Below, piece after piece: positions 7,946 to 61,831 of a stretch of 64,000 nucleotides of DNA. Location of the stretch: the sequence record OZ346222.1, one strand, 5' to 3'. The notes below the pieces were generated by a model, which saw only the letters and a program-made list of their open reading frames with translations, ran no database searches and was not told where the DNA came from. Source of the stretch: a phage. Position numbers and translations under genes: made by a program. Each line of letters opens with the position of its first letter. Within the stretch, counting starts at the first letter, position 1.

Positions 7946-7949
7946 TATA

Positions 7950-7982
7950 TCTAACCGCTCCTGACGGGGCGGTTTTCTTATC
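7950..7982 (+). terminator. rho-independent terminator
   Basis: CCGCTCC-TGAC-GGGGCGG hairpin (one G.U pair) followed by TTTTCTTAT directly after the 6200..7945 stop. Confidence 0.5.
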
Positions 7983-7993
7983 TGGAGAACACA

Positions 7994-30171: not shown

Positions 30172-30509
30172 GTTTGTGGAGAAATATCGTTAACTACGTG
30201 TGTGGCAATCCAACTCCTGAAGAGAAGGATGTTGTGATTCACGATTTTACTAAAAGATCTCGTGAAAAAGATCTACTGCTAACAAAGGTGACTGATAAAG
30301 ATCCTGCAGTAGGGGACTGGGCAGGTTTTGCATTCACATCGGACAAATACACCTTTAACAAAGGTGACTACCTTGTTGTGGATTTTAACGAAGACATCGA
30401 GGGTGCTGAACCTTACTATCAGACCCTTATTGTTGCAGGGTGTGTTGATCTCTCTGCAGGCATGCACAGTTTGATTCTTTTTGAGCTTGACTCTGAAGAC
30501 CTTGAGTAG
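30168..30509 (+). CDS. hypothetical protein
   Basis: 113-aa ORF, overlaps upstream stop. Confidence 0.5.
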   Translation: MSLWRNIVNYVCGNPTPEEKDVVIHDFTKRSREKDLLLTKVTDKDPAVGDWAGFAFTSDKYTFNKGDYLVVDFNEDIEGAEPYYQTLIVAGCVDLSAGMHSLILFELDSEDLE

Positions 30510-30570
30510 TAAGATGTGAGTATAAAGGGGAGGCCTCCTCCCCACAAAAAACTAAGGAGAGCACCAAACG

Positions 30571-32628: not shown

Positions 32629-33111
32629 ATGTCAGCTTTTATGTGGAAAGTAGGTTACGCAGCTCCTGAAATGTGTGAGGCTTGCTTTGTGAAAATAGGC
32701 CGCGAGGATATCGACAAAGTGATCCTTAAGTTTCGTGATGTGGCTGTGATCGGCAACCGAGTGCTTAAGCACTTAAAGAATTTGAAGCTCACCAAAAAGA
32801 AATTCTTCGGGCTTTTCGAAGAGAAAGTTGATGCTTGGACCCATTGCATTCAGGAAGCTAAATCTCACTACAGCGCTATCGTTACCCCAGAACGGGTAGC
32901 CAAGATGGAAGGATTCATCAACAGCACAGAGTTTGAGTGCCTGAAAGCTGCACTTGATAGTTATCCGAAATGCCTCAAGCACTTGGACAAGTATGTAGAA
33001 AAGGATGGGGAAATGTACCTAACCCTGGACGCATATTATGAGATGCAAGAAATTTTAAATTTAGATTTGACATTGGTATCCACCGAGTATACAATAGGTA
33101 TCCGGGTTTAA
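32629..33111 (+). CDS. hypothetical protein
   Basis: 160-aa ORF with RBS AGGAG; followed by terminator. Confidence 0.5.
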   Translation: MSAFMWKVGYAAPEMCEACFVKIGREDIDKVILKFRDVAVIGNRVLKHLKNLKLTKKKFFGLFEEKVDAWTHCIQEAKSHYSAIVTPERVAKMEGFINSTEFECLKAALDSYPKCLKHLDKYVEKDGEMYLTLDAYYEMQEILNLDLTLVSTEYTIGIRV

Positions 33112-33116
33112 CACTA

Positions 33117-33150
33117 GGCCCTGCCCGAAAGGGTGGGGCTTTTTGCATTA
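33117..33150 (+). terminator. rho-independent terminator (copy 1 of a duplicated terminator sequence)
   Basis: GCCCTGCCC-GAAA-GGGTGGGGC hairpin plus TTTTTG; identical hairpin recurs at about 43512. Confidence 0.55.
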
Positions 33151-38483: not shown

Positions 38484-38753
38484 CATTGTGGCTTCATAGA
38501 GTAATCTATGTCGAATAACCTCTTTAACTGCGGGAAGCCTAAACCTTATGGCAAGGTAATCCGCAACGAAGCGCTCAAAAGAGCGAACGCTCAGAGGCCA
38601 TTCCGAAAGGAAGTAGACCAGCAAGTGCGGTCGAAATGGGAGGATTCCTGTGGTTGCTTATCATAGGAATATGAGATGGTCCGATCCTACGTGAAAACGT
38701 ATGGCTATGCACGTAATGGTGCGGGGTAGCTTAACGACCTACCTGAACTATTG
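38478..38753 (+). other. putative group I intron (about 276 nt, no ORF) interrupting the DNA polymerase gene at motif C
   Basis: Exon 1 ends in U (CAU His codon); intervening sequence ends in G; downstream frame resumes with GAT GAG (DE) to complete HDE; intron-internal GUGG about 10 nt in can pair with exon-terminal CCAU (P1 with U.G at splice site); boundaries +/- 2 nt. Confidence 0.5.
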
Positions 38754-48292: not shown

Positions 48293-48301
48293 AATAGTCG
48301 T

Positions 48302-48329
48302 TGACAACAAGGTTAATCATGGTATTATT
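48302..48329 (+). promoter_or_regulatory. sigma70-type promoter
   Basis: TTGACA-16 nt-TATTAT upstream of the 48379 gene. Confidence 0.5.
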
Positions 48330-48378
48330 ACCCTACAAGGTGAACAACACCGCACTAACCAGTAAAGAGGATAAATTT

Positions 48379-48576
48379 ATGAACGCATACGGGATCAAAG
48401 TACGTCGCAACACTCGCCAGGTGGTCACCAATCAAGTGATTTGCCGGGTGGATGTAACCATCAACAACGGGCAAGGCCTTTATAAATTTCGTCGCGGTCA
48501 TAGCTATACCCTGCAACAGCTTAATCGTTGCGCCCTGACAAAAGGTCAGATCAACCATTGGTTTAATAAAAAATAA
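48379..48576 (+). CDS. small basic protein
   Basis: Start at ATG after AAAGAGGA (track ORF from 48301 would cover the promoter); Arg/Lys-rich. Confidence 0.5.
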   Translation: MNAYGIKVRRNTRQVVTNQVICRVDVTINNGQGLYKFRRGHSYTLQQLNRCALTKGQINHWFNKK

Positions 48577-48640
48577 GTATTGACATACAGTCCGACACCA
48601 AATACACTAAAAGCACAAAAGACACTAAGAGGATAAAATC

Positions 48641-49039
48641 ATGAAAACCACTACCTTTAATTTTGATAATGCAGACTTTTCTTTTTCTGATGTCAAGAAC
48701 TGCCGCCGTGATCGTGGATTTTACAAGGCTTATAATCTGGTGGGCCTGGACGATGACAATAATTTGCACGAAGTAGCTGAGATCCGGTATTATGCCGCCG
48801 CCAGCGGTAACACTAACTACTGCGTTTTTTGGATACACGACAACAAGAACAATAAGTACGGTTATACTGGTGGCAAGGCGAGCGGTCACGGTTACGATAA
48901 AGCTAATGCAGCACTTGAGAGCGCATTAAATGCTATGGGGATCACTGCCAACGGCTGGATCTATGAAGAAGAGTTTTTGTCGGCACTTGCTGACCACCTG
49001 GGCTATAAAAAGCACATTGTAACATGCGCCCACGAATAA
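48641..49039 (+). CDS. hypothetical protein
   Basis: 132 aa; RBS AAGAGGA; TTGACA-17-TACACT promoter about 60 nt upstream. Confidence 0.55.
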   Translation: MKTTTFNFDNADFSFSDVKNCRRDRGFYKAYNLVGLDDDNNLHEVAEIRYYAAASGNTNYCVFWIHDNKNNKYGYTGGKASGHGYDKANAALESALNAMGITANGWIYEEEFLSALADHLGYKKHIVTCAHE

Positions 49040-49121
49040 AAATTGTTGACACGCTGCAAAATTCAAGTAAACTAGTCACAAAAGGCGGGAATGTTTCCCG
49101 CCAACACAAAGGAAAAAGATC

Positions 49122-49526
49122 ATGAATAAGAACGTACGCCGCATCATGAACGAACTGGCAAACGATGAAAAAATTATTGACATGCATTTGATCAACATTT
49201 GCCGCCGTTGTGTAACATACAACAACCGCGCCGCAAAAGCGCGTGAGATGAACGCAAAAGGCACCTTAAAGCCATTCCAGGTGGTGGTAAAGGCCATTAA
49301 AGATGTAACTAATACGGCAAACCAGGTACAGGGGAACACCAACGAGAGTACCAATATTGATCCGGCTTACATCATGAAACGGATCCGGACCTGCAAGAAC
49401 AAAGAGCAAGTGTATAATGTCATAGACTGGTTGGATTCTATGGGCGATGTGGTGTACAATAGATTCTCGGCAGCTATTGAGATCCAGCTTGACAGGTTAG
49501 ACGGTAAAGTACTTAAAACTTACTAA
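49122..49526 (+). CDS. hypothetical protein
   Basis: 134 aa; promoter TTGACA...TAAACT, leader hairpin GGCGGGAA-TGT-TTCCCGCC, CA-rich spacer, RBS. Confidence 0.55.
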   Translation: MNKNVRRIMNELANDEKIIDMHLINICRRCVTYNNRAAKAREMNAKGTLKPFQVVVKAIKDVTNTANQVQGNTNESTNIDPAYIMKRIRTCKNKEQVYNVIDWLDSMGDVVYNRFSAAIEIQLDRLDGKVLKTY

Positions 49527-49537
49527 ATTTATTTTTA

Positions 49538-49561
49538 GATGGCCTTGACTCCAGGGCCATC
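49538..49561. promoter_or_regulatory. dyad-symmetric element GATGGCC-N10-GGCCATC with TTGACT in the spacer (copy 1 of 3)
   Basis: Part of a roughly 44-nt block TTATTTTTAGATGGCCTTGACTCCAGGGCCATCAATAAAGTAAA repeated at about 50159 and 53897, each directly after a gene stop. Confidence 0.5.
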
Positions 49562-49726
49562 AATAAAGTAAATTAATCTCAGCTAAGCGAAAAAGGGGGC
49601 TTTAAGATGAGCACTACACGCCAATACACAAAGGTAACTATTATCGCCTGCGTTGTCGGTTACATCCTGGCGCAAATGTTAATGAGTAGCGCTAACAGTT
49701 TTGCAAAATTTTTCTTAAATTTTTAA

Positions 49727-49754
49727 TTGACAAGCTAACTTAGATTGATATACT
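49727..49754 (+). promoter_or_regulatory. sigma70-type promoter
   Basis: TTGACA-16 nt-TATACT, followed by leader hairpin GGGAA-AAC-TTCCC and CA-rich spacer. Confidence 0.5.
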
Positions 49755-49805
49755 TAAACACGTAAACGGGAAAACTTCCCAGAACACACAAAAGGAGAAA
49801 ACACC

Positions 49806-50147
49806 ATGACTACTATGGCCGCCGCAGAAAAAGCTATTCAGATCGCCGCACTGAAAAAACAGATCGCAGACCTTGAGAACAAGATCGATAACTTTGAAAT
49901 CGACGAGGACAAGTACGACGAAAACTATGATGAATGGTTAGACGAGATCTACGGCGAAATTATGATCGGAAACATTTCTTTTCTTCCGTCGCGTATCCTC
50001 AAGGAGCTAGATCCTATCGCTTACCGCTGCGGATTTAGCGACTACATCGACAGCCTGGATATTGAGGACGATGAAGAATACCAGGAATTACAGACAGAGT
50101 TAGAAGAAGCAAAAGAAGAGCTTGCAGAACTGGAAGAAAACGAGTAA
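49806..50147 (+). CDS. highly acidic coiled-coil protein
   Basis: 113 aa, strongly Asp/Glu-rich; RBS AAAGGAGAAA. Confidence 0.55.
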   Translation: MTTMAAAEKAIQIAALKKQIADLENKIDNFEIDEDKYDENYDEWLDEIYGEIMIGNISFLPSRILKELDPIAYRCGFSDYIDSLDIEDDEEYQELQTELEEAKEELAELEENE

Positions 50148-50158
50148 GATTATTTTTA

Positions 50159-50182
50159 GATGGCCTTGACTCCAGGGCCATC
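50159..50182. promoter_or_regulatory. dyad-symmetric element GATGGCC-N10-GGCCATC (copy 2 of 3)
   Basis: Identical to copy 1 including flanks. Confidence 0.5.
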
Positions 50183-50236
50183 AATAAAGTAAACTTTATA
50201 CTGTTAACACTGAACTAATGCATAGGAGTTAAAACC

Positions 50237-50482
50237 ATGGCAGCACTAATCACCAAATATTATGCCCCTACCAACACCAAAAGCGCCCGTATCATGGTAA
50301 AAGGCTTCGGACGTAAAAAGGTGTACACCTGGGATTATGCCTTAGACACGGAAGACAACTACACCAACGCGATGACCGATTTTATTAATGATCTGAACAC
50401 GCGGATCTTGACAAATTATAAAATTACCGATATTGCCTATATAGGGGAAGGCGGGATCTGTTTTGTCGGTATCGTCAAATAA
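50237..50482 (+). CDS. small hypothetical protein
   Basis: 81 aa; RBS TAGGAG. Confidence 0.5.
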   Translation: MAALITKYYAPTNTKSARIMVKGFGRKKVYTWDYALDTEDNYTNAMTDFINDLNTRILTNYKITDIAYIGEGGICFVGIVK

Positions 50483-50557
50483 GCTGTTTTTTCGGTGGTC
50501 CTGGTAGCAGGGCCATCTATAAAGATAGTTTATCAATACAATGAAAGGAGAAAGTAC

Positions 50558-50911
50558 ATGATCAGCGGGGCAAGTTTTATTATTGGCGCTATTGCTACGG
50601 CTTTAATTGTAAACAAGATCCAATCTAAAAACGAAAAAGATAGCAACGCCCTTACAGAATACCCGTTTTGGGTATTCAACGACAATGAAGACTATATTAT
50701 CAAGTACAAGAATGAGAAGGGCGACCAGGTAACACCGCGACCGATCCCGGCTTACAAGATGCAAGAAACACTATACCGCCTAAAGGCTGGAGGCGCAAAA
50801 ATCGTAGACTTTTGGGGATACGATCACACAGATCAGGAAGTTATAAAGCGCCGTATCCGGGCTATTCAGGCCAATATTGAAGTTAGCAAGGGGGGAATAT
50901 ATGAAGATTAA
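50558..50911 (+). CDS. membrane-anchored protein
   Basis: Start at ATG after AAAGGAGAAAG; N-terminal hydrophobic span (ASFIIGAIATALIV). Confidence 0.5.
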   Translation: MISGASFIIGAIATALIVNKIQSKNEKDSNALTEYPFWVFNDNEDYIIKYKNEKGDQVTPRPIPAYKMQETLYRLKAGGAKIVDFWGYDHTDQEVIKRRIRAIQANIEVSKGGIYED

Positions 50912-51098
50912 TTTTGAGAAGATTGTAAAGCGATCTCATGCTTCCGAAGAGCTGCCGGAACGCCGCCAGCGCAACAATAAACTGAATAAGCCAAAAAGAT
51001 TTGGGAAGATCTGGCGGAATCATTATGATCGCAAATTACCGGGCCTGCTTTTGGAACGTGAACGACAGGCGGAACGATACCGCCACAAAGGCAAATAA
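50901..51098 (+). CDS. small basic protein
   Basis: Start at internal ATG of track ORF 50877..51098 after a G-rich RBS; Arg/Lys-rich; followed by terminator. Confidence 0.45.
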   Translation: MKINFEKIVKRSHASEELPERRQRNNKLNKPKRFGKIWRNHYDRKLPGLLLERERQAERYRHKGK

Positions 51099-51106
51099 CA
51101 ACCAAC

Positions 51107-51137
51107 GCCCCGCCATTGTGCGGGGCTTTTTATTTCT
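51107..51137 (+). terminator. rho-independent terminator
   Basis: GCCCCGC-CATTGT-GCGGGGC hairpin followed by TTTTTATTTC. Confidence 0.6.
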
Positions 51138-51279
51138 ATCCTACGAATAGCGCCCCTGGTTGGCCCTGTAAGCGCCAAAAAGGCCCCACCTATGCAATCG
51201 CCCACCTTTAACCTGAAAACATCGCTTAGGGCCGTTTTATGGCGTTAAAAATATCATTGACAGTGATTTTATTTAAAGC

Positions 51280-51308
51280 TTGACATCTTAAACAGGTTAG
51301 CTATACTA
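51280..51308 (+). promoter_or_regulatory. sigma70-type promoter with AT-rich upstream element
   Basis: TTGACA-16 nt-TATACT with A/T-rich upstream sequence and a second TTGACA about 22 nt upstream. Confidence 0.5.
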
Positions 51309-51341
51309 ACCACATCAAAGAGAGAGAAAGGAGTAAACGCC

Positions 51342-51602
51342 ATGCGTAAATTAAAAAATTTTGATAAAGTTGATGTTGTCCTGAATAATTTTTACTACTG
51401 CAACAACAAGGCCATTTGGTGGCGTGATAGTTCCACCGATAAAGTCAAGGCGCGCTTTCTCCAGGGGCACTGGCAAGGCCGCCCAGTGATTAAAATCATG
51501 GGGCAATTGGTAGCGTTTAAAAATTGCCGCCGTGTTGATGACGTTGAAGAGATCTTGAATATTTTACGCCACAATAATTTAAAAAATAGTGTTGACAAGT
51601 AA
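51342..51602 (+). CDS. hypothetical protein
   Basis: 86 aa; RBS AAAGGAG. Confidence 0.55.
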   Translation: MRKLKNFDKVDVVLNNFYYCNNKAIWWRDSSTDKVKARFLQGHWQGRPVIKIMGQLVAFKNCRRVDDVEEILNILRHNNLKNSVDK

Positions 51603-51620
51603 ATCTCAATAAGTATACTT
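51592..51620 (+). promoter_or_regulatory. sigma70-type promoter
   Basis: TTGACA-16 nt-TATACT, then hairpin GGCGGGAA-GTT-TTCCCGCC, CA-rich spacer and RBS. Confidence 0.5.
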
Positions 51621-51676
51621 AAGCACACAGGCGGGAAGTTTTCCCGCCACTAACAAAGAAAATAGGAGAAAATATC

Positions 51677-52300
51677 ATGACCACCGTTAACATTACCACA
51701 GGTTGCAATTTATCTTTCGACGTGCTGACCGACGAACAAAAAGAAAAAGCTGTTGAAATGGTCCGCGAAAGAGAAGAACACAGCGGGGATAACTTTTTTG
51801 CAGAAAGTGTAATTGAATACTATAAAGAATATGTTTTTCCAGAGTACGGGCTTGAAGATACCAAGGTACAGTGGTCCGGCTTTTGGTGTCAAGGCGACGG
51901 CGCATCAATTAGCGCTGAAAATGTAAACTTAGAAAAATTCTTGCGTAAGGTTAAAGCGCTTACAAAATTTCGCTCAATTAGACACTTGTTCGGCACAATG
52001 CACGATGGCGAACTATCAGCCAGCGTTGAACGTATCCCGTTTAGCCATTATCATCACGAAAACACAATAGGCGGGTGCATCGATACCAACTGGCTAGACC
52101 TGACCACCAAGCAAGAGGATAAAATTGAAGAGCTGGAAGAGCTGATCACCGAGACGGTACGGGAGCTATCCCGCAAGGTTTACGTAGACCTGGAGCAGGC
52201 CTATCTTGAACAATTCACTACCGAAAACCTGATCGGCCTTATCGAGGCCAATGATTGGCGGTTTGATGTGGATGAGTATGGCGAGATGACTTTTTCATAA
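51677..52300 (+). CDS. hypothetical protein
   Basis: 207 aa; RBS TAGGAGAAAA. Confidence 0.55.
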   Translation: MTTVNITTGCNLSFDVLTDEQKEKAVEMVREREEHSGDNFFAESVIEYYKEYVFPEYGLEDTKVQWSGFWCQGDGASISAENVNLEKFLRKVKALTKFRSIRHLFGTMHDGELSASVERIPFSHYHHENTIGGCIDTNWLDLTTKQEDKIEELEELITETVRELSRKVYVDLEQAYLEQFTTENLIGLIEANDWRFDVDEYGEMTFS

Positions 52301-52389
52301 ATAAAGTGTTGCAATAACCTAAAAACCTGCTATATTAAAACTCAAGGGGCAAGACGTTTGCCCCCACACAAAACAAAGAGGAAAACATC

Positions 52390-52770
52390 ATGAAAAACAC
52401 TACTAAAGCTATTGACACCGTTATGTTTAACCTGGTTACCTTTCGCGAGGATATGAAAGATCTTCCACGTGAAACAGTGTGCGATCACATTGAAAACTAT
52501 CGCAAACTAATCAAAGAGTTGCCTTTAAAACGTGACCAGTATGCGGCTAACGCCATGCTTAATGCCATGATCAAAAAGATGATTCAGTGTGATTTAACTC
52601 TGGCCTATGACTATGCGGGTGGTCGTTTTGCAGTATACAATCAGCCCGTGCCCGGTATGGGCACCACCGAAGAATTGCACGCGCTCAATCTAAAACAAGA
52701 CGTATGGGATAACATGCCCCGCGTGGTGGTGTGGGCAGAAAGCGGAAAGATTTACGGCGATAATTTTTAA
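52390..52770 (+). CDS. hypothetical protein
   Basis: 126 aa; promoter TTGCAA...TATATT, hairpin GGGGCAA-GACG-TTGCCCC, CA-rich spacer, RBS AAAGAGGAAAA. Confidence 0.55.
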   Translation: MKNTTKAIDTVMFNLVTFREDMKDLPRETVCDHIENYRKLIKELPLKRDQYAANAMLNAMIKKMIQCDLTLAYDYAGGRFAVYNQPVPGMGTTEELHALNLKQDVWDNMPRVVVWAESGKIYGDNF

Positions 52771-52780
52771 TCAGGTAACA

Positions 52781-52810
52781 GGCGGCATATTTGCCGCCTT
52801 ATTGTTAAAC
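52781..52810 (+). terminator. rho-independent terminator
   Basis: GGCGGCA-TATT-TGCCGCC hairpin followed by TTATTGTT. Confidence 0.5.
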
Positions 52811-52834
52811 AGAGTTGCAAAAGAGGTACATAGA

Positions 52835-53206
52835 ATGGAATTTATTATTTTGGCTGTAGTAGTTGCCTTGTTCAACGCCTGGATCGCTGGCAAGATGGGT
52901 AGATCCGCCTTTTTATGGTTTATTATATCTATTTTCCTGGGGGTGGTTGCAACTATTGTACTTGTTATCCTTGCAATTGTTGACAAGGGGAATAATAGAA
53001 AGGGTAAAGTATTTTCAGACCTGTACGACGCTCAAACGTTTGTCAACGCCTATTATAGTGATCTTCCAGTCTCCCTACGCTGCAGCCTGGCACAACAAGT
53101 TTTCGATGAGGCTAAAACCAGAGATCAAGCCCATGAGATATGTTTAACTGAGGCGGATCGCCTATTTGAGAGGAATAGAAAATATGTGGGCCAACCGTTT
53201 AAATAA
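52835..53206 (+). CDS. membrane protein (two predicted TM helices)
   Basis: Start at ATG after AAAGAGG; hydrophobic spans FIILAVVVALFNAWIAG and FLWFIISIFLGVVATIVLVILAIV. Confidence 0.5.
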   Translation: MEFIILAVVVALFNAWIAGKMGRSAFLWFIISIFLGVVATIVLVILAIVDKGNNRKGKVFSDLYDAQTFVNAYYSDLPVSLRCSLAQQVFDEAKTRDQAHEICLTEADRLFERNRKYVGQPFK

Positions 53207-53429
53207 TGCCACGTTAATTAATCCCTTTAGTGAAGATTTGAAGCCAGCCGCCTGGCGTGATGGATTCAATAACGAACGCTTTATTTTCAAGCCTGATCTT
53301 GAGGAATTTTATAACAATGGATCGAACAACAGCGGAGATAATTTTTCTTGGGATGTGCGTGGTGATGGTACTCCTGGGGGCCATTGTAAACCACGTCACT
53401 ACTACCAGGAGGAAAGAGGGAGACGATGA
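53184..53429 (+). CDS. small hypothetical protein
   Basis: Start at ATG after GAGGAA; overlaps upstream gene end by about 23 nt, so start is uncertain. Confidence 0.4.
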   Translation: MWANRLNNATLINPFSEDLKPAAWRDGFNNERFIFKPDLEEFYNNGSNNSGDNFSWDVRGDGTPGGHCKPRHYYQEERGRR

Positions 53430-53545
53430 CAACCAAGGATAAGCCCCGTACCGATAAGGCGCGCCGGGTTATGGTATGGCTTGAGATCATCGCCCTTGAA
53501 ATATTGCTAGGCGTAGGGATGTACTTTATCGCTGTAAGTAACTAA

Positions 53546-53580
53546 GAGCGGCCCCCGATCATGGGGGCCTATCTTTTAAA
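53546..53580 (+). terminator. rho-independent terminator
   Basis: GGCCCCC-GATCAT-GGGGGCC hairpin followed by TATCTTTT. Confidence 0.6.
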
Positions 53581-53683
53581 AAATTTTTCTTCCGGGGTGT
53601 TGCAATCCGGTCCGGAATGTGGATAATAACAATCAACGGGGAGCTAATCCCCACCACCACAAAAACCAGAAAGGAGAAACAAA

Positions 53684-53884
53684 ATGAGCAACAATATCCG
53701 CGTTATTAACTTCAAAAAAGAAGAAAAAATTGCCGTGCTGATTGACGGTCAAGAAATCTTCAAGGGCGACTATGAAGATCATCAAACGGCGATTAGTATC
53801 ACTCGCGTGATTGGTTATCATAATTTCTACCCCCAAGGCGCTGAGGCAGCAGTTAAACGAATCAAAGAGATTGTAGGCCTGTAA
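53684..53884 (+). CDS. small hypothetical protein
   Basis: 66 aa; promoter TTGCAA-17-ATAATA, hairpin GGGGA-GCTAA-TCCCC, CA-rich spacer ACCACCACAAAAACC, RBS AAAGGAGAAA. Confidence 0.55.
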   Translation: MSNNIRVINFKKEEKIAVLIDGQEIFKGDYEDHQTAISITRVIGYHNFYPQGAEAAVKRIKEIVGL

Positions 53885-53896
53885 AATTTATTTTTA

Positions 53897-53920
53897 GATG
53901 GCCTTGACTTCAGGGCCATC
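53897..53920. promoter_or_regulatory. dyad-symmetric element GATGGCC-N10-GGCCATC (copy 3 of 3)
   Basis: Two substitutions relative to copies 1-2 (TTGACTTCAG, CGATAAAG); directly after the 53684..53884 stop. Confidence 0.5.
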
Positions 53921-53977
53921 GATAAAGTAAATTTAAACCCTGTTAAAATACCACGCAGTTAACAAGGAGTGATAGAC

Positions 53978-54277
53978 ATGTTTATCCAGGCTAATAATCT
54001 TTATTTCTTTGATGGTCAGATCGTAGATGGTGTGGAAGTGGAGATCACCGGGTGCCCTGGCGGTCAGGCTATGACTTTTCGGAATAATGCCTTTGATGAT
54101 TCTCATATCGTTATGAGAATGGAAGTTACGAAGCTGGACGACAAGAAAACACTTATTGACTATTCTGTGAAAGATCATCCAGACTACCGCATGATCCATG
54201 GTGATTTGTGCATTGTTGACCGTGACAAGGTGGGCGGCATTGTGATCGCTATTGTGAACGATGTTTTCTCAAACTAA
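53978..54277 (+). CDS. hypothetical protein
   Basis: Start at ATG after AAGGAG (track ORF from 53969). Confidence 0.5.
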   Translation: MFIQANNLYFFDGQIVDGVEVEITGCPGGQAMTFRNNAFDDSHIVMRMEVTKLDDKKTLIDYSVKDHPDYRMIHGDLCIVDRDKVGGIVIAIVNDVFSN

Positions 54278-54294
54278 TTTCAGCAGGCGATTTT

Positions 54295-54645
54295 ATGAAA
54301 GTCAAACTATATTACCTTAATGAGCTTAACCCCCTTGCCCAGGTCCGCGCCCTAGCTAATACCTTGATTTGTGAGAAATCTGTATATTGTGTTGAGCTTA
54401 ACGCCATGCGTGAACGTCTCAAAGGTGGTTACTTTGACATCCATGCTGCAATCAACGGCCTGAATATGGAATTTATACGCTTACGTAACAGCCGCCGGAA
54501 TCTGGCAAGAATGGAACAAGATCCGGCCCACCTTCGTAAGCTGGTTATTGAAAATCATCTGATGTTTAATGCCGAGGGTGATTATTACCATTTTCACCGC
54601 AAACGCTGGTACCGTGGCGGCAATACAGGCAAGAATGCAAAATAA
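54295..54645 (+). CDS. hypothetical protein
   Basis: 116-aa ORF; weak RBS. Confidence 0.45.
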   Translation: MKVKLYYLNELNPLAQVRALANTLICEKSVYCVELNAMRERLKGGYFDIHAAINGLNMEFIRLRNSRRNLARMEQDPAHLRKLVIENHLMFNAEGDYYHFHRKRWYRGGNTGKNAK

Positions 54646-54847
54646 GGCCCCTAGCAGGGCCTGCAGCAATATAATCACATAAAGGCCATGCGGTTGCATG
54701 GCCTTTATTATTTTGGCGTTACAACGGCATACGGGGCGCTTAAAAAATTTTTAAAGAAGTACTTGCATCATTCCCGACAATATGGATAATAAGAGTTGTC
54801 GAGGGGGAGGCCCCCAATCGTTGACCAGATAGATAGGAGTTAAAATC

Positions 54848-55132
54848 ATGGCTATTGTTACCGCTGGCGATGTAGTAGAAATGGAAGCAAAATACTTAAA
54901 AGCGGGTATGCACATCCTACGGAATGATCAAGAGCTATTATTAACGATGGTTGACTATAATCACGGCCAGGATTATCCAAGCATCGACTACTTTTTTGAG
55001 TATGTTGATGAAGAGTTGAAAGAGGATGAGGCCTATTGCGGTGAGTTCTGCAACTTCTTTTGTCCTGATGAGGTTGTAAAGGTTATTTATCAACCTGGCG
55101 TAGCTTTCCCGCTGCACGCTATCAATAAATAA
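54848..55132 (+). CDS. hypothetical acidic protein
   Basis: 94 aa; promoter TTGCAT-17-ATAATA, leader hairpin GGGGGAGGCCCCC, RBS TAGGAG. Confidence 0.55.
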   Translation: MAIVTAGDVVEMEAKYLKAGMHILRNDQELLLTMVDYNHGQDYPSIDYFFEYVDEELKEDEAYCGEFCNFFCPDEVVKVIYQPGVAFPLHAINK

Positions 55133-55187
55133 ACCTGGCGGGGCCGAAAAGGCCCCCAATTATGAAAATAAAGAGAGGCAAATCATC

Positions 55188-55421
55188 ATGATGGAACAAA
55201 TTAAACGCGCCGAGGCTATTAATGGCAACGTGATCTATTTTGTCAGCAAAAACGAAAAAGGCGTACCATATGCGGCAGTAATAGTACAACCTGACGGCGA
55301 TTATTGGTTTACTGTGTACGGCGCTTATTCTTTTGGGCGTCCAGTGCATGATAAAATTTTGAAAGTAGCGAACCCTACCGGGAAGAATATCACAGCAGAA
55401 AAATTTTTTGAAAATAGTTGA
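55188..55421 (+). CDS. small hypothetical protein
   Basis: 77 aa; RBS AAAGAGAGG. Confidence 0.5.
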   Translation: MMEQIKRAEAINGNVIYFVSKNEKGVPYAAVIVQPDGDYWFTVYGAYSFGRPVHDKILKVANPTGKNITAEKFFENS

Positions 55422-55446
55422 CATGACCATATAAGACTGTAATATA
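55418..55446 (+). promoter_or_regulatory. sigma70-type promoter
   Basis: TTGACA-16 nt-TAATAT, then G/C hairpin, CA-rich spacer and RBS. Confidence 0.5.
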
Positions 55447-55497
55447 TAAATCAAAGGGGGCAACGAACCCCACCAACTACAAAGAGGATAAAAATCA

Positions 55498-55677
55498 TGG
55501 CTATTATTGCAAAGACTGAGATCATAGGCTTAGATTCTATTCTCCTCGCATATGAGGAAGCTATAGAAATGTATGTGGTTTCCTATGGTGAGTATATCCG
55601 TGAATATAAATCTATTGATCTGGCTTTTGAATGTTATATCCGCCAGGTTAATAAAGCGTACGATGATTATCGTTAAA
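55498..55677 (+). CDS. small hypothetical protein (about 59 aa)
   Basis: ATG after AAAGAGGATAAAAATC; below track cutoff; coordinates hand-counted. Confidence 0.45.
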
Positions 55678-55682
55678 ATAGT

Positions 55683-55711
55683 TTGACAACAGCCATCTTA
55701 CAAAGCATAAT
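55683..55711 (+). promoter_or_regulatory. sigma70-type promoter
   Basis: TTGACA-18 nt-ATAATA, then hairpin GGCGG...CCGCC and RBS. Confidence 0.45.
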
Positions 55712-55763
55712 ACATAAGGCGGTGGAATGGTCCGCCACCTGGAACAAAGAAGAGGTAAACACC

Positions 55764-56009
55764 ATGAAAAGCAATAAAGGTTATAACGGTTACAAAAACA
55801 AAACTCATTGGAATGTAAGCCTTTGGATTAATAACGATGAGTCATTGTACCGGTTGGCCCAAGGCTTTATTAACGCCAATGCTAATCGTAATGATGCGGC
55901 GCGGGATATGATGCTTTTTCTGGAGCTAACCGGACAAGATAAGACCCTGGACGGCTTCAAGTACAGCACTACGGCGATCCGTGCCGCGATGGTTGGAATG
56001 AAACACTAA
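55764..56009 (+). CDS. small hypothetical protein
   Basis: Start at ATG after AAAGAAGAGG (track ORF from 55683 would cover the promoter). Confidence 0.5.
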   Translation: MKSNKGYNGYKNKTHWNVSLWINNDESLYRLAQGFINANANRNDAARDMMLFLELTGQDKTLDGFKYSTTAIRAAMVGMKH

Positions 56010-56200
56010 AAGCACATAGCTGCCTTACCCTGGGGCTGTGGTAGCGGCCCCATGAATAAGGTTACTAACAGAAGAGAATAAACACCATGAAACAGAAATT
56101 AATCGATGCAGTGATCTTGGTTATTGCCCTGGGTATTGGCCTGATTGCAACCATGTCTAATATGATCTTGTCTTCCAACGGTATCGGGTGAGGTTGGCAA

Positions 56201-56416
56201 ATGATCACTAACAAAACAGGCAAAACGGAATTTTTACGCAACTTACAGATCGGCAAGCCTGAGATCTGGTACTGCACTAAAACACCGCGTGACGAAATGA
56301 AAGACTTCACCGCCACGCTGCAACGGGTAAAGATATCTATCACGCAGAAAAAGGCCTTACTAGTGGTGGAAGGGGAGATCCCCCAAACCGTTGTTATAGT
56401 TGATCGTACAGCATAG
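56201..56416 (+). CDS. small hypothetical protein
   Basis: 71-aa ORF; weak RBS. Confidence 0.45.
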   Translation: MITNKTGKTEFLRNLQIGKPEIWYCTKTPRDEMKDFTATLQRVKISITQKKALLVVEGEIPQTVVIVDRTA

Positions 56417-56507
56417 TTTAATTTATACAGATACCTGAAAATTAACCAACAAAGCATAAACAGGCGGTTACCGCCGCCTTAAACGTAGCAGAAAGAGGAT
56501 AGGCACA

Positions 56508-56792
56508 ATGAAAAAGATGATCGCAGTGGTTACCCTGGTTGTTGGACTTAATGCGCCTGTAATGGCTAAAGAGCTGGCAAAAGAGGTTAATCTAACGGAT
56601 ATTCATGCCGTCAATCAAATCGGGGTTACTTATCGCTTATGCCTTGCCGCTAAAACTTTTAAGGACGGCACAACAGAGTACTACGGATTCGAGGGTATCC
56701 GGTGCGGTGAGCTTGCTCGCGACCTTAAGGAAGATCCAGACCTGGAGGATCTGCCCATAACCGTGAACGGGAAAACTTACGTGAACCGTTAA
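56508..56792 (+). CDS. small secreted/periplasmic protein
   Basis: 94 aa; N-terminal signal peptide MKKMIAVVTLVVGLNAPVMA; RBS AAAGAGGATAGG. Confidence 0.55.
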   Translation: MKKMIAVVTLVVGLNAPVMAKELAKEVNLTDIHAVNQIGVTYRLCLAAKTFKDGTTEYYGFEGIRCGELARDLKEDPDLEDLPITVNGKTYVNR

Positions 56793-56937
56793 CCATGAGA
56801 AAGATAATTATTACCATGGGGATCGTGGCGGCAATGTTGGCGATCTTTCCCTTTATGGTTAGGTATGTGCTGATTAATGTTGTCCTGGTAGTCAGCGATC
56901 TGGTGTTATATATTAACTCATTGTTTTAGGCGCGATA

Positions 56938-57129
56938 ATGACAGCGGAAGAAGTTAAAAAAGTACTGGCGGTACTGCGTTATCATAATCATTGCAAGGTG
57001 AAGAATGATCCTGATTATCTTGATTCATCCCTTGAAGAGGATACACTACAAGCCATAAGCAACATGCAAGAATTGCTTAAGCGTATGACAGAGAAAAACC
57101 GACCGGACTACATAGGGGGTAAAATATGA
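56938..57129 (+). CDS. small hypothetical protein
   Basis: 63-aa ORF. Confidence 0.45.
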   Translation: MTAEEVKKVLAVLRYHNHCKVKNDPDYLDSSLEEDTLQAISNMQELLKRMTEKNRPDYIGGKI

Positions 57130-57437
57130 TCGCTATTACGCCAACCGTTTTAGATTGGTATCGGCAACGCATAGCGCCTCCGCTGGCTATCTTCAAAGAT
57201 GCGGAAGCAAAACAACGCCGGATCTCAATACATGAGATCATCAACCTTAACGCTGGAGGCACACCATACCGCCCAGGACCTGGCCGTGAGATGGACAATA
57301 CATTGGCGATCCTGAAGATACGCCGTAAACGGTCCTCCCTTACGCTGGATTCATTACACACAATGCAGTCTCCGTTCCAGGTGACTGGGAAACGGATCGC
57401 CAGGTCCTGGACAAAGGCCAATGACCGGACCGTATAA
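57126..57437 (+). CDS. hypothetical basic protein
   Basis: 103 aa; ATGA overlap with upstream gene; preferred over the overlapping minus-strand ORF because it continues the co-directional coupled gene series. Confidence 0.45.
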   Translation: MIAITPTVLDWYRQRIAPPLAIFKDAEAKQRRISIHEIINLNAGGTPYRPGPGREMDNTLAILKIRRKRSSLTLDSLHTMQSPFQVTGKRIARSWTKANDRTV

Positions 57438-57522
57438 ATAAAAAGTGTTTTGGTACTGATTTTGGGGTTGACTTGTTCGGCCCCTTTTGCTATTCTTATT
57501 AAACGGGCGGCACTTGGGAACA

Positions 57523-57547
57523 GGGGGAGACAATCACCAGGCCTGCC
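57523..57547. repeat. conserved 23-nt GC-rich motif, copy B (inverted relative to copy A at about 47745)
   Basis: GGGGGAGACAATCACCAGGCCTGCC is the reverse complement of GGCAGGCC(C/T)GGTGATTGTCTCCC at about 47745. Confidence 0.55.
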
Positions 57548-57572
57548 TGTCATATAAGAACTATAAAAACCG

Positions 57573-57601
57573 TTGACATCTGCCAGGGGGTGGGGTAACA
57601 T
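57573..57601 (+). promoter_or_regulatory. sigma70-type promoter
   Basis: TTGACA-17 nt-TAACAT, then hairpin GGGCA...TGCCC, CA-rich spacer CACACAACAACC, RBS. Confidence 0.5.
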
Positions 57602-57655
57602 TTATCTTGAAGGGGCAAAGGTGCCCACACAACAACCAGAAGAGAGGAAAACACT

Positions 57656-57928
57656 ATGTCAAGCTGGATTAATCAAGAAGTCGAATCACGTTTTAATGCT
57701 ATTTGGGATCTCATCGAAAAAGAAGACGGCACATCAAGCCCCTACCTCAACAATTTGGAATTCCATTTTGTGGAAGCGATGAACGCAGAACATGATCACG
57801 AAGGTGGTGCGGACGAGTTCGCTAAAGGGTATGGCTTCAACAATGCCAACGAAATGATCGAGGCGGTTGTACTCCAGGCTGAGGAAGATTATCAATTAAA
57901 AACGCTTGAATTCTGCCGCCGCAAGTAA
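57656..57928 (+). CDS. hypothetical acidic protein
   Basis: 90 aa; RBS AGAGAGGAAAA. Confidence 0.55.
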   Translation: MSSWINQEVESRFNAIWDLIEKEDGTSSPYLNNLEFHFVEAMNAEHDHEGGADEFAKGYGFNNANEMIEAVVLQAEEDYQLKTLEFCRRK

Positions 57929-57988
57929 TAAGATAATGACACGGGCCGGGAGGCCCACTAATCAGAACCACACAAAGAGGTAAACATC

Positions 57989-58252
57989 ATGAAACGTCTT
58001 GATCAGCTTAAACTAGTTCAGTACATGGCCTACAAAGTTCTTGAAGTCCAAAAAGGTAGCAAAAAAGAGGTTTGCGAGAAAGCGTACAAGATCTTTACCC
58101 GTAAAAAAGATGATTGGATGTTACGCCAGACCAAAAAAGCCGATATCTTGGGGTACCTGGAAGAAGAGATCCGACTTGAAGAGCAAGAAGAGATCCGCCG
58201 CAGTGAGGCAGATTATCAGGCAGCCTGGGAAAACTGGATGAGCAACAAATAA
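57989..58252 (+). CDS. hypothetical protein
   Basis: 87 aa; leader hairpin GGGCC-GGGA-GGCCC, CA-rich spacer, RBS AAAGAGG. Confidence 0.55.
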   Translation: MKRLDQLKLVQYMAYKVLEVQKGSKKEVCEKAYKIFTRKKDDWMLRQTKKADILGYLEEEIRLEEQEEIRRSEADYQAAWENWMSNK

Positions 58253-58319
58253 TACAACAAGTTGCACGATCAGGGGGCAATAAAGCCCCTTGATCACATA
58301 AAAATTATGCTATCCTTGG

Positions 58320-58348
58320 TTGACAAGGATCGGCAGTTTTGCTATATT
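58320..58348 (+). promoter_or_regulatory. sigma70-type promoter
   Basis: TTGACA-17 nt-TATATT upstream of the 58397 gene. Confidence 0.5.
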
Positions 58349-58396
58349 CTTTTTGAAGGGAAGTTGTAAGAAAATTAACTAAGAGGTAAAAACACC

Positions 58397-58816
58397 ATGA
58401 ACATTAAATCTAATAATCCGGCATATAGCTTTGATAACGCTTTTTGTCACGGTCCGGCGGCGAAAGGATTCGAAATCGATGGTAAACTAATTATTGTCAA
58501 TGTTGACGGGGAAGAGGTTGCAGTATATCCGGTGGCAGACGTAAAAAGCCGTTTACAATGCCGCATGGATGTTACCGCCTATCAGCTTGATCCGGTCCGC
58601 ATAGTTGCCCTGGTCCTGGAAGAAGAAATTAAAGCCATGCACCATAGCAACAGATTTATTGGTGACGCGCAGGATAATATGAAAGTATGCCGCCATAAAG
58701 TTAATGAAGTGCTTAAAGAGTACGGCTATAAAGATCTTATGATCAAACGTGAGGAAAAATTCCGCTACCGTAACGACCTGGCAAATCGGATTTTTGAAAT
58801 ATACGAATCATTATAA
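58397..58816 (+). CDS. hypothetical protein
   Basis: 139 aa; RBS TAAGAGG; followed by terminator. Confidence 0.55.
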   Translation: MNIKSNNPAYSFDNAFCHGPAAKGFEIDGKLIIVNVDGEEVAVYPVADVKSRLQCRMDVTAYQLDPVRIVALVLEEEIKAMHHSNRFIGDAQDNMKVCRHKVNEVLKEYGYKDLMIKREEKFRYRNDLANRIFEIYESL

Positions 58817-59299: not shown

Positions 59300-60830
59300 G
59301 TCAACATTTTTCGTAAACAGTCTGAAATTGTCACTGTGAGTTATCATAAACAGAGAAATCTTTAGTCGTATAATGTTTACTGTACGTTACTATACTGACT
59401 GGAATCATTAGATGACTAATAGAAAGATAAGAAATAATTAACAATACAATTATTTTACCTGTAACAATAAGACAACTATGCAAACGAATGGCATGGCGCG
59501 ACGGAGTCGCGACATAATATAAAAGCAGTAACCATCACCCCCGTGATGGTTTGTCTGCAATCTATTAATCAGATCATAGTTGCCTTGTATTCAGTTAATC
59601 ATGACATAATAAGCAAGGCAACTATAGATCTGCTAATAGTTGCCCTGCTTTTATATTATGTCATATATTATTAACTTGTTAATTGTTAACTTGCTAATTG
59701 TTTTCATGCAAACGAATGTCATGGCTTATCCTATCTGTGTAAACAGTTAAGGTGTAAACTATCCAGGCGTAAACAGTCTATGCGGGAACAATCTATACGT
59801 GAACAGTGAAACATGAAATAATAACAGTCGTTATTGTGTCGAAAGTGTATAAGGTGTCAGACAAGTTTTTCTCCTCTTTGTCAAGTGCTGCATGAAAAAT
59901 TTACAAGCTTGTATGGTAGCATTTTTGCGGCCCTGTTTACATTCAGCGATGTATGTATAATCCTTGTTGTGTGGGCGTTTAGACGTCTAGACGGTCAGAA
60001 GTCTGCAGGTTAATACCTAATCTATCGGCTGCTAACTATATCCCACACAAATAGTAAGAAATATAATTGTTATGTGCGTAAACAGTAACTCATGTTATCA
60101 ATCCCTGTATGTATCGCCAGTGGTGCGCATAATGGGTATTATGTTAAATTGCCCGTAATGATAACTATTCTCACAATGATAGGTATTCTCATTCACTCCC
60201 ACAAGATAGGTTGCAAATGTTGTGCCACTGTGTGAACGGCCTAACCTATTAATTTGCCTCACTGCCTCGATATTTGAGAATTGTTATAAGAATGAGAAGT
60301 ATTCCCATTTCGTCCGCCTGGCAGCACTCCAGTCGCTACCGCTCATGACAGGGCAGAACTAGACCCTCTTCAGATATTTCTGGCTGACTCTTCAGGTCTG
60401 TGTGGGAAAAGCCAACCTCTCCGGCGGCGGGGAGGGGGTCAATTAAAAAAAATTACGTGGTGCATGAAGCGCTCTTCAGGTAAGGCATGTGTTATGGGAT
60501 GAAACCCTCTTCAGGCAATGATATTTGTGGGTGTGATATTTGCTGGAAAGCCAGATATGACGGGACTCCTGGCGGGGCAGGGGTAGTACAGACAGGGAAA
60601 ATATGGGGGATGTAGTTGGGGAAATTGATCAGACAGGTAGAGTATGGAATATGTTACAAGTATGTTAAATAGGGAGGATGAATATCTGCAGGATTTGTGT
60701 GTAAAATCAAAGACTTAAGTGGTGTTGTGGTATTTTCTATAAATAATTCAAGTTTAATAGGTAATATTTGTCTCTATCCACTTTGTGTGGTAAACAGATT
60801 CAGATGAAATTGGTTTACAAGTGTATACAT
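59300..60830. repeat. iteron-like dispersed repeats (GTAAACAG family) and palindromes in an ORF-free region
   Basis: At least 7 copies of (G)TAAACAG in both orientations, five within about 90 bp near 59.74-59.83 kb; 12-bp inverted repeat ATAGTTGCCTTG/CAAGGCAACTAT near 59.58-59.62 kb; TGCAAACGAATG(G/T)CATGGC twice. Confidence 0.55.
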
Positions 60831-61618: not shown

Positions 61619-61831
61619 TCATAGTCTACCACCTCTGAACTCTTCGTGCTCAGGCATAATAGAGAACCAGATATCTACGATGTCCTCCCACGTCAGGTCA
61701 TCAGCCTCAGGATCTGTCTGGGACGAAGATGAAGAGTCCTCAGAATCTAAGTTTTCCTCTTTAACTGGCTCATCCAAGGGACATATGGTCACTCCTTCGG
61801 ATGTCTCTTCAGATGCATGTGTGTTGATCAT
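61619..61831 (-). CDS. small hypothetical acidic protein
   Basis: 70 aa, Asp/Glu/Ser-rich; its ATG overlaps the stop of an upstream about 34-aa hydrophobic ORF. Confidence 0.45.
   Translation of the reverse strand: MINTHASEETSEGVTICPLDEPVKEENLDSEDSSSSSQTDPEADDLTWEDIVDIWFSIMPEHEEFRGGRL

Follow-up and report, generated by a model that had tools for sequence, protein, structure and literature searches.

Why should a hairpin recur a few nucleotides downstream of one promoter after another in front of small phage genes, and what might it do there? The question arises from a 64,000-nucleotide stretch of phage DNA (sequence record OZ346222.1; hereafter the window), which we assign by sequence comparison to a Vequintavirus phage, an rV5-like coliphage and myovirus with ~96% identity to known isolates. 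For interval 48300-58400 of the window, a preliminary description had reported a module of four parts, namely a near-consensus sigma70-type promoter, a short GC hairpin, a CA-rich leader and a ribosome-binding site (RBS), repeated ahead of individual genes, and had suggested that hairpin and leader form a shared post-transcriptional signal. We find that the recurrence of this module is real and far beyond chance, and that comparison with related phages supports selection on the hairpin as a structure.

The four-part architecture was recovered where it had been described by direct reading of the sequence, by a promoter and terminator scan and by a scan of our own. The interval holds nine complete modules and one partial module, and a further complete one lies outside it at 30487-30570, so that the count of at least a dozen given previously was too high. 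Nine of the ten start codons listed at that time belong to complete modules, including one placed at 55498 whose correct position is 55497; the tenth, ATG 57989, has a hairpin and a CA leader but no acceptable promoter. Promoters in the nine modules consist of TTGACA or TTGCAA/TTGCAT, a spacer of 16-17 nt and TAnnnT, with 9-11 of 12 consensus matches, and the 30 nt located 5' of the -35 are 63-87% A+T compared with 57% for the region. All of the hairpins have GC stems, 4-10 bp long and G-rich in the 5' arm, that begin 5-13 nt past the -10 (six of the nine at 9-11 nt, with a mode of 10), rather than the 10-20 nt first proposed. One hairpin that had been quoted as an example, GGGGCAA-GACG-TTGCCCC, is present in the corrected form GGGGCAA-gacgt-TTGCCCC. 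Every module terminates in a strong Shine-Dalgarno (SD) sequence, 7-9 nt ahead of the ATG, and the ATG itself.

To judge the recurrence statistically, a hairpin was counted if it had a folding free energy (dG) <= -4, >=3 GC pairs and a start 6-14 nt after the -10, and the null was built from dinucleotide-preserving shuffles of the same 42 nt. By this measure, nine of the 13 gene-proximal sigma70 promoters between 48.3 and 58.4 kb bear a hairpin, where 0.62 would be expected (Poisson-binomial P = 1.5e-11), which bears out the earlier view that the repetition is not a coincidence. Among random 42-nt windows, 5.5% carry a qualifying hairpin. The offset of 10 nt after the -10 is also the mode among 53 unique hairpins of related phages.

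The tract between hairpin and SD is 7-19 nt long and has a composition of A.56, C.28, G.09 and T.08, compared with.32/.20/.23/.25 for the region. ACA occurs 17 times in 140 nt of leader, or 0.121 per nt versus 0.020, a six-fold enrichment. With 84% A+C, the tract merits its description as CA-rich overall; the leader before 54848 does not.

We aligned each leader with its counterparts at nine other Vequintavirus loci (L001-L005, L011, L012, L019 and L020), giving ten genomes with the window; an IMG/VR search for additional orthologs returned just two close contigs. The proportion of variable alignment columns was 4% in the -35, 13% in the -10, 20% in the stems, 27% in the spacer, 33% in the leader and 63% in the loops, and the difference between stem and loop columns is significant over the ten genomes (Fisher P = 1.6e-6). 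When the orthologs were refolded singly, the hairpin appeared at the same location in all of them, despite loop swaps (GTT to AAC, GGG to AAA), lengthening or shortening of the stem and small indels.

Individual modules illustrate this pattern. The hairpin of module 1 has the same sequence in seven of nine genomes compared (the window and six of eight orthologs). The loop of module 3 is GTT in the window and AAC in eight orthologs, with a G.U variant in L012, and the orthologs of module 4 differ in loop and in stem length, with folding retained in every one. Module 2 has GGGA-gtaca-TCCC instead in L012, and the orthologs of module 7 carry GGGGC-aacaa-GCCCC or GGGG-caag-CCCC. The hairpin at 54803 presents a compensatory series, being G-C in the window, G.U in L004, L019 and L020, and A-U in L012. 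Stem sequences are unrelated between modules, and it is the structure that is maintained rather than the sequence. These patterns support selection on the hairpin as a structure whose stems are conserved and whose loops are free to vary. A second series, C-G to U.G to U-A, that had been read in the hairpin at 55717-55740 is withdrawn, as RNAalifold favours a different 10-bp register there; the register listed for module 8 is the one taken from RNAalifold.

Modules of this kind also fill the early regions of phages outside the genus. They are found at 17 of 20 strong gene-proximal promoters in Schickermooser and 13 of 20 in ZCKP1 (both Phapecoctavirus), and at 11 of 18 in phi92 and 11 of 23 in Serratia phage KKP_3264 (both Justusliebigvirus). 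The version in these two genera is more stereotyped, taking the form TTGACA-16-TAAGAT gtatcacatAGGGCGGCAATGGTGCCGCTCacaacagaAGAGAG...ATG. Stephanstirmvirinae hairpins are nearly identical to one another, reading GGGCGGCAAT(G/A)GTGCCGCTC or GGCGGGAA..TTCCCGCC, and the loop core AAUGG/AAUAG recurs among them. In a 49-kb early region of T4, the module was found at none of nine promoters. Of 53 distinct hairpins across the family, 21 contain G.U pairs and 37 fold more stably as sense than as antisense RNA (P = 0.0012), an excess that points to structure at the RNA level on the coding strand. We take the modules to be a family by descent, common to the subfamilies Vequintavirinae and Stephanstirmvirinae, and the module to be much older than the genus Vequintavirus. 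The coordinates of the modules and of the features interleaved with them are collected in Table 1.

Table 1. Modules and associated elements in the window. Offset, nt from the -10 to the hairpin.
Feature	Position	Strand	Promoter	Offset	Hairpin	Leader	SD; start	Remarks
Module 1	49046..49121	+	TTGACA-16-TAAACT	10	GGCGGGAA-tgt-TTCCCGCC, 49084-49102	aacacaa	AGGA; ATG 49122	
Module 2	49727..49805	+	TTGACA-16-TATACT	13	GGGAA-aac-TTCCC, 49768-49780	agaacacacaa	AAGGAG; ATG 49806	
Module 3	51592..51676	+	TTGACA-16-TATACT	10	GGCGGGAA-gtt-TTCCCGCC, 51630-51648	actaacaaagaaaat	AGGAG; ATG 51677	
Module 4	52309..52389	+	TTGCAA-16-TATATT (TG-extended)	9	GGGGCAA-gacgt-TTGCCCC, 52346-52364	cacacaaaacaa	AGAGGA; ATG 52390	
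Module 5	53600..53683	+	TTGCAA-16-GATAAT	10	GGGGA-gctaa-TCCCC, 53638-53652	accaccacaaaaaccaga	AAGGAG; ATG 53684	terminator 53550-53569 upstream
Module 6	54763..54847	+	TTGCAT-16-GATAAT	12	GGGGG-agg-CCCCC, 54803-54815	not CA-rich	TAGGAG; ATG 54848	terminator 54679-54708 upstream
Module 7	55418..55496	+	TTGACA-16-TAATAT	10	GGGG-gcaacgaa-CCCC, 55456-55471	accaactacaa	AGAGGA; ATG 55497	
Module 8	55683..55763	+	TTGACA-17-CATAAT	5	AGGCGGUGGA-augg-UCCGCCACCU, 10 bp with one C.A mismatch, 55717-55740	ggaacaaaga	AGAGG; ATG 55764	
Module 9	57573..57655	+	TTGACA-17-TAACAT	11	GGGCA-aagg-TGCCC, 57613-57626	acacaacaaccaga	AGAGAGG; ATG 57656	terminator 57464-57484 upstream
Partial module	57943..57988	+	none usable (TTGAAT, 20-nt spacer, GATAAT)		GGGCC-ggga-GGCCC, 57943-57956	CA leader	SD; ATG 57989	
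Module outside the interval	30487..30570	+	TTGACT-17-TAAGAT	11	GGGGAGG-cct-CCTCCCC, 30527-30543	acaaaaaacta	AGGAG; ATG 30571	
Hairpin-less promoter	48301..48379	+	TTGACA-16-TATTAT		no GC hairpin	A/C-rich	ATG 48380	
Further hairpin-less promoters	48580-48640, 51280-51341, 58320-58396	+				A-rich		no GC hairpin
Promoter-less GC hairpin	55140..55156	+			GGGGCC-gaaaa-GGCCCC			no U tract; between stop codon and next SD
Promoter-less GC hairpins	56032-56051, 56462-56479	+						no U tract; each between stop codon and next SD
Intrinsic terminators	51107..51126, 52780-52799, 53550-53569, 54679-54708, 57464-57484	+			hairpin with 5-7 T in next 8 nt			upstream of promoters; contrast class
Type-2 element (44-bp repeat)	49529..49572; copies 50150-50193, 53888-53931	+			TTATTTTTA-GATGGCCTTG-actc-CAGGGCCATC-AATAAAGTAAA			variant hairpin 50494-50517

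A second repeated element, which we call type 2 to set it apart from the type-1 leader hairpins of the modules, is interleaved with them. Its overall form is TTATTTTTA-GATGGCCTTGACTCCAGGGCCATC-AATAAAGTAAA, with a 10-bp hairpin and a TTGACT (-35) in and around the loop, and it precedes genes 49608, 50237, 50559 and 53978. A pattern search gave five matches versus 0.11 expected; four are this element, and the fifth lies at 61679-61702 with two mismatches. In the variant copy the stem is kept via G.U pairs and the -35 is lost. A T run lies ahead of the type-2 hairpin and an A run behind it, so that it would act as a terminator on neither strand; the Murica record annotates it as one. The element was seen in Vequintavirus loci only.

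Gene content of the interval differs between close genomes, and three clean cases of cassette gain or loss have their junctions inside these repeated units. L011 and L020 lack window positions 49573-50146 through a 575-bp deletion between two of the 44-bp type-2 copies. The window itself lacks a cassette of 261-541 bp that is present in L003 and L012, with the junction at two TTGACA boxes. Deletion by recombination between the two -35 boxes left the tandem TTGACA at 51258/51280 (51258-51285, 22 nt apart) as its scar, the first box being what remains of the promoter of the lost cassette. Finally, the window is without a ~260-bp gene and second leader that are kept in L011 and L020, the junction lying within two homologous CA leaders; a leader-to-leader deletion that removed its own promoter accounts for gene 57989 having a hairpin and a leader and no promoter. 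The junctions thus fall in the -35 box, the CA leader and the type-2 repeat, and none in a type-1 hairpin. Being repeated and similar, the units likely serve as recombination junctions for the gain and loss of small genes.

The closest described system is the promoter-early stem-loop (PeSL), a class of mobile regulatory cassettes of the T4-type phages RB49 and phi1 (Arbiol et al. 2010, PMC2839356). A PeSL joins a sigma70 promoter of consensus type, AT-rich on its upstream side, to a stable stem-loop, its first arm frequently poly-G and its second poly-C, and ends 3' in an SD and ATG. Copies stand repeatedly ahead of orphan genes where the genome is hyperplastic, gene cassettes are shuffled by recombination at these sites, mini-circles form during infection, and five positional subclasses are distinguished, including a stem-loop overlapping the -35 and a stem-loop downstream of the -10 (PMC2839356). 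The modules of the window share the sigma70 consensus, the AT-rich upstream region, the G-then-C stem, the SD and ATG of a small orphan gene and the hyperplastic early region, as well as the recombination between copies described above. Reading the RB49 region directly, we found that its leaders are also A/C-rich (A.46, C.25, G.11, T.18) and that the leader of RB49 ORF207 has exactly the geometry of the window modules; the type-2 element corresponds to the PeSL subclass whose stem-loop overlaps the -35. There are also differences. Vequintavirinae and Stephanstirmvirinae are unrelated to Straboviridae, and most stem-loops of RB49 are placed either in the spacer from -35 to -10 or across the -10, outside their own transcript, whereas those of the window lie ~10 nt after the -10, inside the 5' untranslated region (UTR), with no U tract. 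For the window hairpins, the terminator or attenuator reading given by the authors of the PeSL study fits poorly. By their layout, we classify the modules as PeSL-type cassettes of rV5-like phages, mostly of the subclass with the stem-loop after the -10. The preliminary description had overlooked this precedent, along with descent across two phage subfamilies, the cassette-junction role and the interleaved type-2 elements and terminators.

What, then, would the hairpin and leader do? We propose that each unit is a self-contained cassette for the expression of an early gene, in which the 5' hairpin would stabilise and insulate the mRNA and the leader would enhance translation, a reading to which we give roughly even odds of being right. 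Host sigma70 RNA polymerase would initiate at the near-consensus promoter with its AT-rich upstream region and, going by promoter geometry, the transcript would begin ~7-8 nt past the -10. Eight of the nine modules have a Y-R step at this predicted start (7th-8th nt). The GC stem-loop would then cover the first 20-25 nt of the mRNA and leave a predicted 0-6 (median 3) nucleotides unpaired at the 5' end. A stem-loop in this position would hinder RppH and the 5'-end-dependent entry of RNase E, and the mRNA would live longer as a result. Secondary structure at the 5' end is known to stabilise E. coli mRNAs, and the accepted explanation is that both RppH and RNase E require single-stranded 5' termini (review PMC3997798). 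The stem-loop would also fold alone, so that the ribosome site would behave alike whatever sequence lies upstream. In silico deletion of the hairpin leaves RBS accessibility unchanged, which indicates that the hairpin folds independently of the RBS; independent folding would suit a unit required to work in any context.

The leader would contribute in several ways. It is almost free of U and G, and with no U tract behind it the hairpin would be unable to terminate its own transcript. The RNase E cleavage consensus is U-dependent, and a U-poor, ribosome-free leader would offer few such sites. Its ACA motifs, placed directly ahead of the strong SD, may act as translational enhancers. In enterobacterial leaders, among them yifK, dppA and gltI, experiments have established ACA and CA-rich elements as enhancers of translation (Yang et al. 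2014, PMC3879156), and there, as in the phage leaders, ACA clusters lie with loose spacing in an A/C-rich stretch just 5' of the SD. In contrast to those leaders, which the host small RNA GcvB targets, the phage leaders show no pairing with GcvB R1 beyond that of random sequence: the R1 duplex has a mean of -12.9 kcal/mol versus -11.3 for random 30-nt windows (5th percentile -17.9). Targeting of the CA leaders by GcvB, or sponging of GcvB by them, was rejected on this count. We had also entertained the idea that the CA tract mainly keeps the RBS unpaired, and found it unsupported.

There is precedent for such a stabiliser. Transcripts of phage T7 gene 10 / phi10 begin with a stem-loop that is a 5'-terminal stabiliser of mRNA. 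Stem-loops in the ompA and papA 5' UTRs are described as having the same effect on E. coli mRNAs (Emory, Bouvet and Belasco 1992, as cited in PMC3997798). The modules resemble these stabilisers in having a hairpin a few nucleotides from the (here predicted) 5' end, an unstructured leader, a strong ribosome site, and a requirement for structure rather than for sequence. They differ in that the predicted ~3-nt overhang is at the upper edge of the protective range, and in that a single genome carries the element at 10-20 of its promoters.

A number of observations weigh against the proposal that these units are 5'-stabilised expression cassettes. The E. coli RppH is still active on 2-3 unpaired nucleotides; with an overhang of ~3 nt (up to 6 in module 2), the protection is possibly partial. 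In addition, direct entry of RNase E is not blocked by 5' hairpins (PMC3997798). Four promoters in the interval (48301, 48580, 51280 and 58320) have no hairpin, and four similar hairpins (55140, 56032, 56462 and 57943) have no promoter ahead. In the Certrevirus Pectobacterium phage DU_PP_I (L008), promoters and A/C-rich leaders are kept and perfect hairpins occur at 2 of 13, leaving most promoters hairpin-less; its early leaders at 6700-9650 are long (e.g. gacggcatagacaaacgaaagcaacaccagacaaccaaac), with a conserved CATAG near the predicted start. Hairpin and A/C-rich leader are therefore separable. RNAalifold on MAFFT alignments of orthologs and of paralogs scores one two-sided pair change only, in hairpin 54803, a formal covariation that is thin partly because loop indels disturb the alignments. 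Within the window alone there is no asymmetry of stability between strands, sense and antisense folds being equally stable. The native CA tract gives an unpaired probability for the RBS of 0.69, compared with 0.65 for a random tract (P = 0.30), and an enhancer effect, should there be one, would therefore depend on the sequence itself, as has been described for ACA. No published transcriptome, start-site, half-life or reporter data for rV5-like phages were found in the literature searched. Lastly, one PeSL stem-loop followed by a modest U content was a strong terminator in a lacZ assay (PMC2839356).

That last result bears on an alternative, the PeSL model applied as it stands, in which the hairpin acts on transcripts arriving from upstream. 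It would be either a terminator or attenuator that insulates the cassette from read-through or a block to 3' exonucleases, by which the upstream mRNA would have its 3' end fixed and stabilised, and its position in the 5' UTR would be incidental. Six modules have no canonical terminator upstream and would hence be crossed by read-through transcripts, and the four promoter-less hairpins listed above, which follow stop codons, are comparable in kind. The annotation of phage Alma labels two leader hairpins as terminators, and the PeSL stem-loops of RB49 and phi1 were themselves proposed as terminators or attenuators, one of them lowering lacZ as much as rrnB T1 (PMC2839356). A hairpin that lies 3' of a promoter, however, would strike its own cassette's transcript equally, in conflict with the consensus promoters and strong ribosome sites, and a 3'-end element has no reason to keep a fixed distance of ~10 nt to the -10. 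The leader hairpins share a short, GC-rich form with intrinsic terminators but not their U tract: the 8 nt after the nine hairpins contain 0-3 T, compared with 5-7 for six genuine terminators of the region (P = 0.0012), which sit upstream of promoters rather than after them. A terminator scan of the + strand called none of the leader hairpins; terminator-like calls on the minus strand for four of them are explained by the A-rich start region and were not reproduced in relatives. With no U tract and a position 3' of the promoter, the leader hairpins were rejected as intrinsic terminators, and public annotation of post-promoter hairpins as terminators is probably wrong. We consider an action on upstream transcripts unlikely; the PeSL stem-loop that terminated strongly with modest downstream U is the reason that we do not rate it lower.

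The hairpin, with or without the CA tract, might instead be recognised by a protein or by RNA polymerase so as to switch the whole early regulon, for example through nut- or put-like antitermination, as a regulated attenuator, or as the target of a shut-off nuclease or translational repressor. A hairpin directly after many promoters of one temporal class would suit such a role, as would the near-identical Stephanstirmvirinae hairpins with their AAUGG/AAUAG loop core, and the lambda nut boxB and HK022 put elements are likewise small promoter-proximal RNA hairpins in early transcripts, boxB being of similar size. Against this, each Vequintavirus module tends to have a stem and loop of its own (GGCGGGAA, GGGGCAA, GGGGA and GGGCA, among others), loops change fastest among orthologs with 63% of their columns variable, and the hairpins have neither the conserved loop nor the boxA-like partner of nut and put, and stand one per gene rather than one per operon. 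Rfam gave no match in the region at gathering score, the sole hit with E <= 1 being a chance-level 31.5-bit match to a Clostridium small RNA. Recent cassette duplication or gene conversion would explain the uniformity in Stephanstirmvirinae equally well, and we regard a recognition site as improbable. Of the forms that the preliminary description allowed for the shared signal, a stabilising 5' stem-loop together with a translation enhancer fits best, and the diversity of stems and loops speaks against a site for an RNA-binding protein.

The palindrome could also act as DNA, as an operator for a dimeric repressor, a cruciform, or a recombination or nuclease site, with the RNA structure irrelevant. 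The palindromes span +1 to +25, the classic operator position, and indel junctions fall in modules. The sequences are nonetheless too diverse for a single DNA-binding specificity, and the junctions lie in the -35 box, CA leader and type-2 repeat, not in type-1 hairpins. Moreover, 21 of 53 stems have G.U pairs, which would turn into A.C mismatches in the complementary strand, and the stability of the sense RNA is significantly higher. An action as DNA therefore seems to us highly improbable. Two more specific candidates were set aside. A single operator, or a single RNA-protein site, does not agree with the eight stem sequences and nine loops of the window, the loops being the most variable part. 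An alternative promoter whose -35 and -10 flank the hairpin, the arrangement of most RB49 PeSLs, was rejected because no -10-like hexamer is found 3' of the leader hairpins.

A gene elsewhere in the window suggests a more specific version of the stabilised-cassette proposal. An open reading frame (ORF) of 347 amino acids at 19864-20907 (-), beside divergent promoters at ~20900, matches the PHROG family of Srd anti-sigma factors (phrog_1400, E = 2.9e-10) and that of sigma70 decoys (E = 2.9e-15); the PHROG that it matches best carries the label HNH endonuclease, and Pfam gave no hit. Its probable counterpart is rV5 gp11, for which an Srd-like identity was suggested previously (PMC3606486). As cited in PMC4980113, the Srd of T4 stimulates RNase E against host mRNA, and an Srd-like gene would thus give the phage a possible motive for nuclease-resistant 5' ends. 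The 5' hairpin and U-free leader could be a mark of self that lets early phage mRNA escape Srd-stimulated RNase E, its 5' ends being paired and its ribosome-free leaders devoid of U-dependent sites of cleavage, or else a dedicated factor of phage or host origin could read the hairpin to switch the early regulon on or off. We think this rather improbable. If it were true, the hairpin would be a coordinated post-transcriptional regulon signal of two phage subfamilies and not a generic stabiliser.

The genes served by the modules give little indication of their roles. All of the ~28 small genes in 48300-58400 lie on the + strand, and public records call nearly all of them hypothetical. No function was found for ten cassette proteins in a scan of PHROG families and domains, where the matches were to PHROG families of unknown function and to one domain of unknown function only. 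The remaining genes of the interval are served by translational coupling, by promoter-less hairpins or by the type-2 element. The paper describing the rV5 genome gives a genome-wide prediction of 33 sigma70-type promoters along with 20 terminators, and leaves structured leaders and leader hairpins unmentioned (PMC3606486). Over its full length, the interval is 93-96.5% identical to many Escherichia phages of the genus Vequintavirus, including A6-1, AlexBoehm, rV5_ev168 and Murica.

The same search brought up 22 database records (MG0656xx, e.g. H25, H31, H32 and H36) titled 'Campylobacter phage', with Campylobacter jejuni as host, that are ~93-94% identical to this E. coli Vequintavirus region; they probably reflect mislabelling or contamination in the source collection. 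Three further features of the window were noted. A group I catalytic intron lies well outside the cassette interval at 38468-38703 (+) (Rfam RF00028, 64.7 bits, E = 4e-14). At 33067-33150 (+), a promoter with 11 of 12 consensus positions, TTGACA-17-TACAAT, leads within ~25 nt to a strong hairpin, GCCCTGCCC-gaaa-GGGTGGGGC, and TTTTT; the predicted transcript of ~45 nt would be a small RNA or a constitutive attenuator. At 59600-59690 (-), near the end of the + strand gene array, a promoter-like TTAACA-16-CATAAT is followed by a 15-bp perfect hairpin, CAGGGCAACTATAG...CTATAGTTGCCTTG.

These results show that cassettes of promoter, stem-loop and leader extend beyond T4-type phages and organise the orphan-rich early regions of Vequintavirinae and Stephanstirmvirinae. 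The modules would mark points at which small host-takeover genes are exchanged between genomes, in a group of phages, the rV5-like phages, that is common in phage-therapy and E. coli O157 biocontrol collections. At ~80 bp, they are compact and, it appears, naturally optimised and portable expression units that may find use in E. coli engineering. If the 5' hairpin does protect phage mRNA while an Srd-like protein speeds the decay of host mRNA, then these phages would offer a simple and testable case of discrimination between self and host mRNA.

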